From: Psilocybe cubensis
Lineage: Eukaryota
Assembly: GCA_017499595.2 (NCBI GenBank)
Contig: CM039002.1
Span: 2,232,001-2,296,000 of the forward strand
Length of the DNA: 64,000 bases
Direction of reading: 5' to 3'
The notes below the pieces were generated by a model, which was not told where the DNA came from, searched no databases, and saw only the letters and a program-made list of their open reading frames with translations. Positions 14,495 to 26,700 of this stretch are shown here, piece by piece (position 1 is the first letter of the stretch; every line of letters starts with the position of its first letter). The translations under genes were made by a program, and so were the position numbers.

Positions 14495-16410
<1,916 letters not shown>

Positions 16411-16523
16411 GGTTGTAGAGAAAAAGGGGGCGCAGACGATGAGGAGAAAGACAAAGAAGATTCAAGAAAAAAGTTGATCAGTGTAAGGCTTTTAAAAAAA
16501 GATGAGGATGGATGCACGGGTTC

Positions 16524-16936: not shown

Positions 16937-17628
16937 TCACACAACGCGCCGCTCGCAGCGAGTCTCGGCATGAACGCCTTCACAGTTGAGATCACAGTAT
17001 GGCATAGCGCAGCGTCGACATTTGTATGAGCCCCAGTAGCCACAGACAGAGCAGATCATTCGTGGCGGGTACACAGAGGGAGGTGCGCTTGCGGTGAGAT
17101 ATGTAGGCACAGTAGAGGGCAGCGAGGCAATACCCTAAGTCGGGCTCGCGTTCAGAACAAAAATAGCGTGGAAGCACGGAGGGTCGGTACTTACAGATTC
17201 CTCGATGAGAGTCGCGAGATTTTTGCGGTATAGCAGTGCGGTCCGAACATTCATCGTAGACTTTTTCTTCTTCGTCGCAGGAGAAGTGCCCAGGATATTG
17301 AGGTTCCGTTTGTCAGAGATGATTTGGCGTCCGCGGCCCTTGTGGTATTTGTTGCCGCCTTCTTCGTCGTCGTCTACACCCGCCAGAAGAGTAGGTTCTG
17401 CATAGTTGGATCTCTGTATCCGCCCTCGTGTTCAGGGTCCGTCAGTAGCCCAGAACTGAAGGTCCTACCTCAAGTTCGTCGAGGTGGCGTTTAGTCCGCT
17501 TTTGAATGACTTCGGGGGCCAACGTCTGCACGATTGCAACATTTTGACGGGGCACTGGTTGAAAACATAAGATGGTGTTTCATGAGATTGAGAGACTTAC
17601 ACTGATCCCTTGCTTTCTTTGGCGGCAT
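16937..17628 (-). CDS. VPS71: SWR1 complex subunit Vps71/SWC6 (ZNHIT1-like, zf-HIT), 4 exons
   Basis: Spliced by hand: MPPKKARDQLPRQ...KRHLDELERSNYAEP...YLTASAPPSVYPPRMICSVCGYWGSYKCRRCAMPYCDLNCEGVHAETRC. All introns are GT-AG. Absent from the ORF track. Confidence 0.88.
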
Positions 17629-17836: not shown

Positions 17837-20800
17837 ATGGCGCCCTCAATTGACCCCCGCGCCCCTGGAAAGTTCCCGCTCCACAATCTTCCTACCCCAG
17901 AACCAGAGTCCCCGCTCAGACCTCGCAAGCCTTACCGTTTTTCGACACTATGTGCGACCGTGGAGAACCCGGATATGAAGGACCAGTATGGCAGTAGCTC
18001 AGTCCCCATCTACCAAACCGCAACTTTCAAAGGTGTTGGCGAAAAGTATGACTACTCGAGAAGTGGAAACCCCACCAGAAGCCATCTCGGTACGCACAGT
18101 TTTTTCGCAAGTTCTGGTCAGAAAATCTTATACACACCAATAATGTAGAGCACCATATTGCCAAGATTTCGTCTGCAGCGCATGCCTTCACAGTGTCTTC
18201 GGGAATGGCTGCTCTGGATGTCATTTTGCGCATCCTCAAGCCAGGAGACGAAATCATCGCCGGAGATGACTTATACGGCGGTACAAATCGTCTGTTGACC
18301 TACATCCGTACCCACGTCGGTGTCACCATTCACCATGTCGATACTACCAACCCCGAGACTTTGCACCCCTACATCAACTCCACCAAGACAGCTATGGTTT
18401 TGTTGGAGTCACCGACAAACCCCCTCCTTAAAATTGTCGATTTGGCCAGAATTAGCAGAGACGTCAAGGAGCGCGCCCCGAACGCGATCATAGTCGTGGA
18501 TAACACCATGATGAGCCCATACCTCCAACGACCCTTGGAGCACGGTGCCGACATCGTGTACGACAGCGCGACGAAATACCTCAGCGGGCACCACGACCTC
18601 ATGGCAGGTGTCGTTACCTGCAACCGGGAAGACATTGCGCAGAAGCTCGCATTCACCATCAACTCCGTCGGCAATGCACTGACACCCATCGACTCGTTCC
18701 TCCTCCTCCGTGGCATCAAGACCCTTGCACTCCGCATGGACCGTCAACAGGCTACAACACAAATGGTCGCTGAATATCTCTACACCCTGGGCTTCCAGGT
18801 ACATTACCCCGGGCTACCTGATCACCCTGGGCAAGAGGTCCACGCCAGGATCGCAGACGGGAATGGCGCTGTGTTGAGTTTCGAGACCGGGAACAAGGAG
18901 CTAAGCGAGAAAATTGTCGCGGGCACGAGGTTATGGGGGATCAGTGTCAGTTTCGGCTGCGTAAACAGTCTGATCAGTATGCCCTGCGTGATGTCGTAAG
19001 TATTTTTGTTTTTCGTTTCTTTTTGGTTGTCAAAGTTCGGGTTAAAGTGCTCCTGCTAACTATTGGCACACATCAGTCATGCATCCATCGACCCGGCTAC
19101 CCGCGCTGCTCGTGGACTACCAGAGGACCTCATTCGTCTATGTGTTGGCATCGAGGACCCTCATGACCTTCTTGACGACCTGGAACACGCTCTCGTCGAC
19201 GCCGGTGCCATCGTTTTGGACGTCGCGCAGAACAAATACGTCAGAGTGCCAGATCATGCTGCACTAGCTCTGGCGGCTAACAAACTTCGCCTCGAGGCTG
19301 CTGAACAGAAGCAGGAGTGGTTCATCAGTGCCCCCGGCAAAATCATCTTATTCGGAGAGCACGCTGTGGTGCATGGTGTCGTAAGTCCTCTTTCTCCACT
19401 CAGGGACAGGTACGAACGGGTGTGCGGTAATGAACGCCCCCGGGATCGACTGCACCGGCGTTCATCTTGTTCTGATATCTTGTTCGTTGCTGCGACGAAC
19501 ATGGTCGAATGAAATAAACCTTATGCTGATGTGTCTGTGCCTTTTTCTCTCTCTTCCGTAGACTGCAATCGCCGCATCCGTGGACCTCCGGTGCTATGGT
19601 TTGGCAACCCCAAGAAAAGATGGAAAGCTCTCGATTCGTCTCTTGGACATTGGCAACTTCACCCATGAATGGGATGTCCAGTCATTACCTTGGGACGCTG
19701 TAACACCCATCGCACCCGGTGATGAACATCCGGAGGAGCTTGATTACAGACTCGTCGTCGCTTTGAATGAGAAGGCCTTGCATTTCATAGGCGACGAAAA
19801 CAAGGCGGCCCACGGGGCCTGTCTGGCGTTCCTGTATCTGTACATGATCTTGAACAGAAATGAAGAATAGTGAGTCATTAACACTACCAACCCCCAATCT
19901 GTACCCCGCGGACGAAACTCCCTTTCTCGTCATACTACCTTGTGTCTAACTCCCCACTGACCACTCTTTACGCGCTTTCTCTCTTTTTTTACCAGCCCTG
20001 CCTTCGATTTCGCTGCGCGATCAACACTCCCGGTTGGCGCTGGTTTAGGGTCTTCAGCATCCTACTCCGTTTGTGCTGCCACCGCGTCATTGCTCGTCCA
20101 CCGTCGGATAACCCTCCCGCGACCGCTCCCACCTTCATCAACGGAGCACATCCACGTCTCGCACCAGGGCCGGCGCGCCATCGCCCCACAGACAGCAGAA
20201 GAAGTGAACAAATGGGCGTTTGTAGCGGAAAAGATCCTCCACGGGAATCCCAGCGGTGTCGACAACAGCGTTGCAGTGTTTGGCGGCGCTCTTGCCTACA
20301 CCCGTCCTGGATTCGGCAGGAAAGGTGGAATGGAAGGAATTCAGGGGTGAGTCCACTTTCTCTCTGTCTGCCTCTCATCCGGTTACCCAGAGTTGGGGCA
20401 TCATTACGCTTTGGATCTGACCTATTATCTCAATCTGTTCACGCCCCTAGATTCAAGCACTTCAACTTCTTGTTGACTAACTCCAAGGTGCCTCGAGATA
20501 CGAAGAAACTGGTGGCTGGTGTGGGTGCTAAAAAGGCAAAGGTATGTGCCCCTTTGCGCGATACGAACACATCATATGAACTGATCCATTTGTCCTTTGC
20601 TCGTACCAGGAACCCGAGCTGGTGAATAGCATTATGGAAGCCATTCAGACTATCAGCGATGAGGCGAGGAGGGCGCTGGCGGATCCGGAGCTGCCTCGTG
20701 AATCACTGCTGGACGCTATATCTGTGCGTATTATGAATTTCTGTTGATAACTTGTCAACTATCACGAAACTTATGACTCTATCTATCTGATCAGGCTCTT

Positions 20801-21362
20801 ATGAATGAAAACCACCAGCACCTGGTGACGTTGGGCGTCTCCCATCCTGCCCTGGAAAGCATCAGACGCACGACCCAGGCGCACAAGTTGTCGACCAAGC
20901 TCACTGGCGCCGGAGGTGGAGGCTGCGCTGTTACGCTTATTCCAGATGGTAAGCATATCTACTCTAGTCGTGGGCTACACTGGGACCATGAGGCTGACGC
21001 GGAACATTATCGAATACTCAGAATTCGAGGACAGTAAGCAGCGGGATCTGATCAACGCTCTGATCCGCGAGGGCTTCCAACCCTATCTCACATCTGTGGG
21101 TGGAAGTGGCCTTGGAATCTTGTCGCCATACCCTGAGCATCGTGCGCTTGGATCTCGCTCTCGCCGGCCCACGACAGACAGTCTGGGACAGGTGACTCCT
21201 CCGGAGACCCCGACACCCTCACTGTTGTCGTCGAACGAGATCGTGGACGGGTCTGCCAACTCCACCGATCTGTACCCACCATTACATGACACATTCGTAT
21301 CGAGCAGTGTGGCGGAGCTGCCGGTGTGGGCTGGCGACCTGGGACGTTGGTTATACGTCTGA
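17837..21362 (+). CDS. Bifunctional fusion: cystathionine beta-lyase (N-terminal, PLP) + mevalonate kinase (C-terminal, GHMP)
   Basis: CBL motifs YDYSRSGNPTR, ESPTNP, DNT, SATKYLSGHHD, LIRLCVGIED continue in the same exon (19077-19380) into MVK motif SAPGKIILFGEHAVVHG. Later exons give LPVGAGLGSSAS, HGNPSGVDN and KLTGAGGGGC; stop at 21360-21362. Confidence 0.92.
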
Positions 21363-22452: not shown

Positions 22453-23717
22453 TCACTCATCGTCGGACTCAATGCAGTCCTCGGACGAAAGACCTTCTGG
22501 GACCTCTTTTGGCCTGAGATGAACCACTCTGGTCTCTTTGATCTCAAGATGCCTTGATCCAAAATATCTGGGAGTCTCGAAGCACCATCTAAAATAGAAA
22601 GGATGTCAAAGAGCTGCCGAGTGGGTATTGAAGACGATAGAGACGTACTCAATGTTACCAATCATCCAATAGCCAACAAAGTCGATGAACTGCAAGGCCT
22701 CTGGACCCAGAGACGGTGAAATCTGGCTTTTTGCAGAAATGTAGTCAGAGACAAATTCGCCGCAGCGCTCGCCAATGTAATCCGCGGTCTCTTGCAGGTT
22801 CGTTCCGTTTTCGTTCATCAATATGCTGACGATGTTATTGCCGGCTAGGCCTTTGGATTGCTCCATATCGTAGGAGTAGATATCCTGAATTTGGGAGAAA
22901 CGTTAAGTAATATTCCAAAGCACAGGAACCGAGCGTTATGACGTACATTGGCCCAGCAGACTTGATCACAGGCGGCCCAGTATGCCTTCATGAACATCTC
23001 GTCTTCGTAGACCTCATCGGCCAAGTCGATGCCCAGGATATATTCCACAAGAGCGAAGCAGAGGAGAACGGCGCTGTTTTGTCGACGAAGGGGGATGTAT
23101 GAAGCAAGGTCTAGGAGCTCAGAACGTTCTCGAAGCTCGGCCTCCTCTCCCACACAGGCCGTGTATGACTCGCAAAGATCAATAAAGCGTTTTGTGTTTC
23201 TGGGACCGGCTAGGCGGGTGAAGCGAGCCATGAATCTAAAAGAAATAGGTTTGTTAGAGCTTGCCTGGAGCCCTCGATCTTATGGCCAACTTACTCTTTC
23301 GTGACCTTAGCAAGGATAGAGCCGTCGTCCCAGTCAGGATATTTCATGGCTTTGAAAAACACTTGTCCGGTTTCCCGGGCACCCTTTCCATTTTGCTCGT
23401 CGCTAACTTCATCTACCACAAACAACAGGTTGACCTGGATAAAAATAAGTACACTCTATATTTAATCCATCACTTAAATCACTCACGAAGTCGCAGGTCG
23501 TTCGCAATTGCTCGCGTCCAGCGTACCAGTAGACGTGTGAGCAAAGCAGTTCATTTTGACCTTGAATAAACTCGGCTCGCTTTCTATCTGTGAAGATGTC
23601 GTAGCCGTTGATCCAGGCCCTTGACTCTGCCGCCGCCTCTTTGTAGTAAGGGTTTGTTGCGTCCTTCAAAGGGCACGACTCGAGGAGATCAGGGAGGACG
23701 AATTGTTCAGTAGACAT
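22453..23717 (-). CDS. Sesquiterpene synthase, Cop4/cubebol-synthase-like (clade II), 5 exons
   Basis: [12 protein letters not shown] aspartate-rich motif, NSE triad [19 protein letters not shown]; ends [15 protein letters not shown] at 23812-23817 on the minus strand. Resembles P. cubensis CubA from memory only. Confidence 0.92.
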
Positions 23718-26700
23718 TGTAAATTGCTGGGAAGTTAAGGGCGAAGATGAGAGGTGATATGTAGTTATCTGTGTAACTGAGTGTGGGGATGATGGTCGAG
23801 TCGCTCTGGTCTTTATACAAAATCAAGGGGGCGCACACTGAGACTGTACTCCCCCATGACTATCTTCAGCGAAGCTCATTTTCTCGGGACGATCGTGGCC
23901 GTACCCGATCTCATCTGAAGGGACACAATTACGAAAATTCATGCAATCTGAAGATTTATTGTTAGAATTCGGTGAAGCATTTCTTAATATGGCTCATTTC
24001 CGCAAGAGCAGCACTTCATGTTAGGAACCTGCCACCGATCTTGTCGACGTGCAGCGGTGTATGGAGGGGTATCTTAATTGGTAAATGGGGAAACTAACGC
24101 GTAAGATATAGCTGTGTCCTGCGAGAGTGCAAAAATACATCAAAGCCGTTGCAGTCCAGGCATGCCATCACCTTACCTTCCTATTTAGAGCATCTAGTTT
24201 CCTTAATAGTCTGCTGGAACTCATTTCCCAGACAAAAAATTGGAGATAGATTCTTTGATCAATACATATTTGTTTTCGCAGTTTGAAGAAAGATATGCAC
24301 CTTCGCATCATCAGCGGGATAACTATCAAGTATTACAATGAACAGGCATATTCCGAGCCTTTCGGCGGCAGTTGATCTTGCATCATAGATAGCTATACAT
24401 CAAAATATTTTCTTCAATGAATAGGTAGACATTATACTTCTATAATTACTCCTAGTCACCTTCAAATACATACCCGTTCGAACATGTTACAATCATTAAT
24501 CCGGTGGTTGTAGCTTGTGGCTTCAGTGGCGGTCTGCAGCGTCCTTCACCGTAGCGTGCCGCGCCGTCGAGTCAACGGTATGGCGCTGTTCCACGCCCTT
24601 CGGACCATCCTTTGTTTATTATTTTGCGAGCGGCTCGGGCAATTTTATTACCACTGTTTTCTCCCCATAGCAGTCCACAGTGGTGCCACAGTCCTGCACA
24701 AGCTTTGCGTCATTACCTTCTAAATGGATATGATAGTGTTACCGTCATCGAGCGTTCAAATTTCCCCTTTATGCACACGAGCACCGGAGCATCTCGTCCG
24801 CGGTTTTCACAAAAAGCTTTACCTTTCGCAGAGTCGAGAATAAAACGGCATGGCCTTGCGACCTGACTGTCCAGACTGGAATGTGCCTTTCTCATCAAGC
24901 ACTTAAGGTTAAGTCTATGCCTATCGATATTCAAATCCACGTGGGCAGCCGTGTTATGTTTGGAAGTTTTCAGAGAATTATCTCAATGCGATTATGGGCC
25001 TAATTTTAGATCTACGCGTTGTCAGCAATTCCCAGTAAGTAGGCCTGATGAGATCCTTGATAATTATTGATAGCATTGAGCTGACAACAAACGAGTGACT
25101 AACCGTAGCCAATGAATTTCCTTGCCCATATTTGAAGTATGTGAAGTTTCAGTTTATTCGTGTCTCTATGTTTCAACGCGACAAGATCTTTCAGACTTAC
25201 GGTTGCGGTCCTGCGGACTCTACTGTGAGTCATTCCGCTATGAGGACGGCCAACAGGATTGTTTGCACGGTCCGAAATATGTGAAGACCATGCATCGGTG
25301 CAAATTAAGCAGCGATACGCTAGTACAAATACTATCAAGCCAAACATTACATTTTTGAACATTCAGTTGGTACCGTTGTGCATTTCATGTTCCGCTGTGA
25401 CAAGTGTAGTTTCATGTAGAGAATGTTACTCTTGGGGCGCAACGGGCGTCTATAACGAACTTCCGCTTCATAGAAGACGACGAACTGCAATGACCTCCGA
25501 CTTGCCCACATACCGGCCAACAACGTCTGATAATGAGAACAAAAAACTTTTATATTATGGGAGACATGTATGATTTACCATGTTCTCATATTTGCAAACT
25601 CAGGGAGAGCGAGTCCGTCGCAGTTAGGAAACCCGCATCGTCGTGTGGGCACTGGCGATGTTGAGCCCAATATGTTCTATTTTTAGCGCCCGACCGACCT
25701 CCATGACTCATGTCAGTGCCGGAGTAAATCCCAGCAAAGACTCGACGTAGGTAGGGTCAGACAACAGTTAAGGCCTCAGCGCACGTTACTCATTGGGCAC
25801 GTCGGGAGAGATCGGTTGGGAGTCGGATTTGGTAGGTAGCTTACAAGTCATTCCGCCCCCGGTGTAGCTCCTTCGTGGTGACTGGAGAGCGCCTAAAATG
25901 CGATGAGACCCGGGCAGCAAAGGAGACAATCACCAAGAGGTACTCATAATTGAATGCGTGTGGGACAACTATTAAGAAAATGTAACTACACTTCTTAGCG
26001 TAGCATAATCTTCTCGTATTTTGTGGTGACACCGACAGGCAAGAAAACCTCAGTCGGTAAGCGACGGCATGCAATAATCTTTCCGCGGCGAGAGCGGATA
26101 TACATGGTACTCGCCTCCGACCGACATGCAAGAGAGTGAGCTCCACGACGTCGAGAGTCGTAAACGATTATTCTGTGAGATATCGAGGCCGCCGATTTGT
26201 TTCAGCTCGATTCTGACTCGAAGGAAAGGGCTAGAAAGCGCTATCTTCGGGAGACGCATCTGGCCTTGAATTGAAAAAGTTTAACAAAATGAAACAAGAG
26301 AAAGCTTACTCTACGAGTGAGTGGTATAGCCTCTGTGCAGATACACTTGAAAGAAACGATGATCTAATACATACGGACAATCAATTTCTAGAGTATACTC
26401 TAAATGAGCGTATGGTTCGGCAAATGAGACAGGAGTGTAACCATGCTTCAAATGCAGCCCCCGCGGGCCGCCTCGAGATTGAAAAGGGCCAGAGGCACCC
26501 AACCCCACGATGGGCTTCGTATAGACAGATAAGAGAGGATGTTACGTATGGATCGTAACGATCTCTGGATATATACGTGATAGTTTGTCGATAAGTCGAC
26601 CGGGATGGTGTCACCCGAGGAACTCATGGCTAGATTTCTTGTTAGAAAAGGTACGCTAAGAAGTTGTAAGGCGTGTAAACTTGGAATAACGAAAATGTTA

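Follow-up and report, generated by a model that had tools for sequence, protein, structure and literature searches.

Positions 17,837–21,362 of a 64,000-nucleotide stretch of Psilocybe cubensis DNA (hereafter the window; it belongs to contig C5 in a eukaryotic genome of 46.6 Mb) raise the question of why a single gene should encode a cystathionine beta-lyase (CBL) and a mevalonate kinase (MVK) as one polypeptide. The two reactions have no common substrate or product, and the lasting union of two unrelated housekeeping enzymes, already described in print, is a curiosity of the whole phylum. As a discovery the fusion is minor, having been in print since 2012. The reading favoured here, with a probability of about 0.6, is that the halves act independently on one chain and that the fusion is a single ancestral event, hard to undo, with a probably tetrameric lyase.

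Gene structure and transcripts

The gene runs from the ATG at 17837 to the stop codon at 21360–21362 (window coordinates; Table 1). All eight introns are of the GT..AG type, and the joined exons form one open frame of 920 aa, whose product is a 100% match to a deposited P. cubensis protein (P0001) annotated at its source as a cystathionine beta-lyase.

Table 1. Coordinates of the fusion gene, its parts and its neighbours in the window
Feature	Position	Strand	Basis
CBL/MVK fusion gene, nine exons, 920 aa (Str3-Erg12, "metC-MVK")	17837..21362	+	spliced frame, identity to P0001, spliced contigs
Exon 1: N-terminal leader of low confidence, then the beginning of CBL (YDYSRSGNPT, aa 71–80)	17837..18089	+	frame, contigs, model
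Exon 2: PLP-dependent CBL core; Schiff-base Lys227 (18574–18576), Tyr127, Asp202, Ser352	18149..18995	+	frame, profiles, alignment
Exon 3 (junction exon): end of CBL with Arg387, the tether, and the N-terminal motif of MVK holding Lys455 (19339–19341), Glu461, His462	19077..19380	+	frame, contigs, alignments
Inter-domain tether, about aa 424–447, single predicted helix 426–443	19246..19317	+	AlphaFold2 model, 13-protein alignment
Exon 4: N-terminal domain of MVK	19562..19869	+	frame, contigs, alignment
Exon 5: ATP-binding loop PVGAGLGSSA (Ser591), Agaricomycotina-type insertion (HIHVSHQGRRA), Glu649, catalytic Asp660 (20261–20263)	19996..20346	+	frame, alignments
Exon 6: C-terminal domain of MVK	20451..20541	+	frame, contigs
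Exon 7: C-terminal domain of MVK	20610..20723	+	frame, contigs
Exon 8: KLTGAGGGG motif of MVK (aa 791–799)	20795..20948	+	frame, contigs, alignment
Exon 9: end of MVK, disordered aa 858–886, conserved Trp-containing tail (Trp917)	21022..21362	+	frame, alignments, model
Homocitrate-synthase-like gene (HMGL-like domain)	14883..16461	-	
HIT zinc-finger gene (PF04438)	16937..17628	-	
Terpene synthase gene (PF19086)	22606..23822	-	

The locus is contained in five sequencing runs, none of them recorded as RNA, and three of the five were compared (X1, X2 and X3). Runs X1 and X2 belong to one study; their RNA label was guessed by software, and they were judged to be RNA-derived by the removal of introns. 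Their contigs carry 8/8 predicted splice joints, one record per run spans both halves, and no loose ends or alternative joints were seen in these spliced contigs at the locus, assembled contigs being unable to reveal transcript starts, ends or rare isoforms. Run X3 contributes an unspliced contig that covers the entire stretch in a single piece.

The two halves meet inside exon 3. The motif LIRLCVGIED of the lyase (aa 385–394, 19129–19158) and SAPGKIILFGEH of the kinase (from aa 451, 19327) share this exon and its frame, and the 56 residues between them include neither a stop nor a Met. The exon has five ATG triplets, all out of frame, and neither AATAAA nor ATTAAA. This frame check agrees with the original prediction, which had described a junction within one open exon and hence a single polypeptide. 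The X1 and X2 contigs, which by their nature cannot show transcript starts or ends, include none that starts or ends inside this exon.

A merger of two adjoining genes, by gene prediction or misassembly, would gain from the fact that a contig over two genes is no proof of one transcript, and the X1 contig does extend into the divergent upstream gene. Such an artefact is refuted, and has practically no probability left, by the open junction exon, by the contigs (among them the independent one of X3) and by the length of the homologues: the junction exon matched 933 longer proteins, and 101 of the 120 listed have 700 aa or more. The fusion is also reported as an assembled transcript in another mushroom, in the accessible text of PMC3720577. 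Because the spliced contigs and the open junction exon combine, there is little doubt of one transcript, and the claim that no gene models were merged holds.

Upstream, the fusion gene stands head-to-head with the HIT zinc-finger gene, which we take to be Vps71/ZNHIT1-like, with about 208 bp between the start codons. One spliced contig crosses both genes and removes a minus-strand intron (17555–17600); a shared promoter and overlapping 5′ ends are suggested for the pair. The next gene upstream is the homocitrate-synthase-like one. The terpene synthase gene lies about 1.2 kb downstream of the kinase half, a proximity that is probably due to chance.

The lyase half, the kinase half and their tether

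Residues ~34–423 correspond to the eukaryotic CBL profile TIGR01329 of NCBIfam (535 bits; cut-off 487.5), with the Pfam domain Cys_Met_Meta_PP at 44–406. Residues ~448–845 correspond to the MVK profile TIGR00549 (218.5 bits; cut-off 163.05), with the GHMP N domain at 569–602 and the GHMP C domain at 752–810. Among the 25 NCBIfam families examined, of 50 matched, only these two exceed their cut-offs, TIGR01329 being the sole Cys/Met family to do so. The best solved relative of the lyase half is Arabidopsis CBL 1IBJ (E 7e-103), and those of the kinase half are mammalian MVK 1KVK (E 1e-70) and 2R3V; the fold search returned only the expected lyase family among the matches listed.

Both catalytic sets had been described as intact, and their motifs are all present: SATKYLSG, with the PLP lysine, starts at 18565; GAGLGSSA lies inside 20030–20062 and SGVD inside 20240–20266; KLTGAGGGG starts at 20897. 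Alignment to 1IBJ puts Tyr73, Arg75, Tyr127, Asp202, Lys227, Ser352 and Arg387 in the lyase site, with roles that we take to be those known for CBL. Lys455, Glu461, His462, Ser591, Glu649 and Asp660 align to residues 13, 19, 20, 146, 193 and 204 of 1KVK, and presumably play the parts known from rat MVK. These 13 residues are invariant in 124/124 full-length fusions, hand-picked from the homologue search results, and both halves are therefore under purifying selection.

An AlphaFold2 monomer model was built with the 124-sequence alignment (mean pLDDT 83, pTM 0.57), and both domains are confident in it while the tether is not. The last helix of the lyase (395–409) is followed by a hairpin (412–423), by the helix of the tether (pLDDT <50 at 429–436) and by the kinase from residue 448. 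Sequence resembling the hairpin follows the last helix in the stand-alone ascomycete lyase P0129, so the hairpin is part of the fungal CBL. With a true tether predicted at about 24 residues, most of the 56-residue gap would thus be the lyase's own helix and hairpin. A helical linker of about 45 aa had been proposed; the helix is predicted here as well, and the length shrinks to those 24 residues.

The tether varies in length and sequence in an alignment of 13 proteins from the three subphyla, and in P0126 it is about 100 residues longer. Within Agaricomycetes the helix is retained and the gap between the motifs is tight, 54–66 residues in 118/120 matches listed, these being chosen by likeness to the junction exon. 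Such variation favours, by comparison of sequences, a loose tether, and would leave room for contacts inside a tetramer, which a monomer model cannot display. A complex prediction with the halves as separate chains (aa 28–425 with 444–920), in which alignments were unused, scored 0.00 and carries no weight for or against such contacts.

Cleavage of the tether, or minor transcripts, might yield separate CBL and MVK in the cell. The model shows the tether exposed, with low confidence, and rare isoforms would be lost from assembled contigs; however, the tether has no conserved motif, the junction exon offers neither an in-frame start nor a polyadenylation hexamer of the kinds sought, and the spliced contigs of both runs lack loose ends and alternative joints. 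We consider such products very improbable.

Cys/Met PLP lyases are homotetramers, and the CBL tetramer could have become a scaffold for folding, stability or oligomerisation that basidiomycete MVK now needs, fission being blocked thereby. The helical tether retained in Agaricomycetes and the lack of a natural split among the matches listed would suit this dependence, which nevertheless seems rather improbable: the kinase half can be aligned over its whole length to stand-alone MVKs of fungi and mammals, is modelled confidently as a self-contained domain and ends in the same Trp tail as stand-alone fungal MVKs. That this conserved tail might be a docking motif specific to the fusion was rejected, as stand-alone ascomycete and mucoromycete MVKs carry it too.

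Distribution, published record and copy number

A search with the orthologue from a smut relative gave 717 matches; 120/120 listed carry PF01053 and PF00288, and the named members among those 120 are all basidiomycetes. The matches listed place the fusion in Agaricomycetes, Dacrymycetes, Ustilaginomycetes, Exobasidiomycetes, Malassezia and Microbotryomycetes, and a rust protein is likewise fused. All three basidiomycete subphyla are represented in the homologue searches, with neither Tremellomycetes nor Wallemia among the named proteins listed. The suggestion that the fusion may be common across Agaricomycetes is borne out as to its being common, and understated its range and its standing in print.

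Complete named stand-alone MVKs among the matches listed come from Ascomycota, Mucoromycota, Basidiobolus and one chytrid, and none from the named basidiomycete entries of 120 matches listed. Ascomycetes have stand-alone CBL and MVK proteins, as the original prediction had stated for yeast. Short basidiomycete "mevalonate kinase" entries (6 named of 120 listed) were rejected as natural splits, as they cover 56–85% of the domain or hold lyase sequence; Lentinula detonsa P0292, the one of the six that was aligned, retains the CBL tail. An Inonotus obliquus "mevalonate kinase" of 308 aa (P0293) has 71% of the kinase domain only. Deposited mushroom "MVK" sequences may thus be fragments of the fusion. 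P0129 and P0131 (~650 aa, CBL and other sequence) were rejected as fusions, having no GHMP domain. Two Malassezia proteins (P0410 and P0411, 1210–1249 aa) present the fusion with extra aminotransferase-like Pfam matches, which could reflect either an additional fusion event or the merging of gene models.

In the accessible text of Liu et al. 2012 (PMC3342255), the fusion is named "metC-MVK" and reported from 12 basidiomycetes, Laccaria bicolor excepted, as their sole MVK homologue, with its origin placed in the basidiomycete ancestor; a 16-aa mid-MVK insertion is described there in 7 of 12–13 species. The Psilocybe insertion (~aa 618–630), which is common to Ganoderma, Postia, Calocera and Tulasnella and absent in smuts, Malassezia and rust, presumably corresponds to it. 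Wilson et al. 2012 (PMC3468542) reported the fusion independently and, in the portion available, left its significance to be determined and gave Postia placenta as an exception. That exception is probably a gene-model error: another genome annotation has a fused Postia placenta model of 909 aa (P0481). The fusion is also described in a further mushroom (PMC4129116, accessible text), and goes unmentioned in the accessible text of PMC4393869 and of PMC13412983, a review from 2026 on the mevalonate pathway of fungi in which the word "cystathionine" is absent. Some database entries are already titled "cystathionine beta-lyase/mevalonate kinase". The literature search, made in the main text of openly accessible papers, turned up neither a biochemical nor a genetic study of the fusion, in line with the earlier remark that no functional study was known; mutant screens across the genomes of basidiomycete yeasts may contain pertinent data. 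Taken together, the distribution of the sequences is compatible with one fusion event in the ancestor of the basidiomycetes; the fusion is likely a shared derived character of Basidiomycota.

In the P. cubensis genome, a profile search with the best candidates scored gave five PF00288 matches, of which only the fusion locus is MVK-like; one other is a homoserine-kinase-like frame. The kinase half strongly matches its own locus only, other GHMP loci having E 0.002 or worse, and by sequence the fusion appears to be the only MVK detected in the genome. There are 14 PF01053 matches, at the fusion locus and five other loci. The fusion locus is the strongest of them and the best CBL (K01760-type) candidate; the others most resemble gamma-lyase/synthase or sulfhydrylase, single exons being scored and all falling below whole-protein cut-offs. 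They include two genes judged from one exon each, scored below its cut-off: on contig C9 one resembling gamma-lyase/synthase, and on C12 one resembling O-acetylhomoserine sulfhydrylase (Met17-like), which could bypass CBL toward homocysteine.

Persistence of the fusion and known systems

In the reading we prefer, one mRNA would give one bifunctional cytosolic enzyme. Its N-terminal half (Str3) would use PLP at Lys227 to split cystathionine into homocysteine, pyruvate and ammonia, and its C-terminal half (Erg12), the only MVK, would convert ATP and mevalonate to mevalonate-5-phosphate. The halves would fold apart and operate independently on a short, variable tether, the lyase most likely keeping the usual tetramer and bearing up to four kinase domains. 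Since no metabolite is common to both reactions, channelling is not possible. The fusion would have arisen once, in the basidiomycete ancestor, and would persist mainly because it is hard to reverse, as an essential kinase is left without its own promoter or start codon. Its practical outcome would be obligatory 1:1 co-expression, with neither channelling nor dedicated allostery. All named full-length basidiomycete proteins seen, from three subphyla, keep the fusion, and selection for it would leave that pattern too. This, like the tight motif gap and the retained helix within Agaricomycetes, speaks against the preferred reading.

Under such selection, close to the physical coupling of methionine/SAM synthesis to isoprenoid flux that the original prediction had proposed, the supply of homocysteine, methionine and SAM would be tied to mevalonate flux, through the SREBP regulon or cross-talk of the domains, as the C24 methylation of ergosterol uses SAM. 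A shared, SREBP-responsive promoter would lift CBL at low sterol, isoprenoid or sulfur ligands of one half would tune the other in the tetramer, and the fusion would be kept phylum-wide for this reason. If true, sulfur and sterol metabolism would be linked across the phylum, a link so far only remarked on in print. The spread over all three subphyla and the lack of complete stand-alone MVKs among the named basidiomycete matches listed speak for this coupling. So does Ganoderma lingzhi, whose SREBP binds the mevalonate kinase gene g3941 and raises it on overexpression (PMC9810662, with no mention of cystathionine in its accessible text); by way of PMC3342255, we infer that g3941 is the fused gene. 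Co-regulation through one promoter would be plausible. A mammalian-type sterol regulatory element goes unmatched in the gap of 208 bp upstream, and the window as a whole holds 20 matches against 13.7 expected, figures that weigh neither for nor against the coupling. Against the coupling, CBL lies two enzymes before SAM, MVK acts many steps before C24 methylation, and ascomycetes produce ergosterol using separate genes. The tether is unconserved across subphyla, and the Met17-like candidate would open a CBL-free route to homocysteine. The coupling, mechanism included, is therefore considered unlikely, and the original interpretation holds in part only.

The fusion has practical consequences. 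Most database entries name the lyase alone, and MVK looks missing in reconstructions of mushroom terpenoid pathways. Knocking out the whole "STR3" gene of a basidiomycete would remove the only MVK as well and would probably be lethal, and overexpression of "MVK" is overexpression of CBL too.

Compared with known systems, the lyase half has the PLP-binding and catalytic residues of eukaryotic CBL (TIGR01329; yeast Str3; 1IBJ) and passes the curated cut-off. CBL is a stand-alone enzyme in ascomycetes, chytrids and plants, whereas the Psilocybe version bears a C-terminal kinase. Elsewhere, eukaryote-type CBL is joined to homoserine dehydrogenase, in some cases together with aspartate kinase, or to an Ldh_2 domain (P0138, P0144, P0146 and P0147); the lyase would therefore tolerate fusion at either end. 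The kinase half shares all three GHMP motifs with MVK of the GHMP family (TIGR00549; yeast Erg12; 1KVK, 2R3V), passes the cut-off and has the residues matching rat Lys13, Glu19, His20, Ser146, Glu193 and Asp204. Unlike stand-alone MVK, it lacks its own start codon and has the Agaricomycotina-type insertion, and its C-terminal tail is longer than that of mammalian MVK. With the published basidiomycete metC-MVK, as described in the accessible text, it has in common the order (CBL N-terminal, MVK C-terminal), the status of only MVK in the genome and the mid-MVK insertion. Its 920 aa compare with 918 in Lignosus and an average of ~886, and full-length identity to Ganoderma lucidum P0093 is 68%. 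Judged on these likenesses, the Psilocybe protein is an orthologue of metC-MVK, with no difference in kind.
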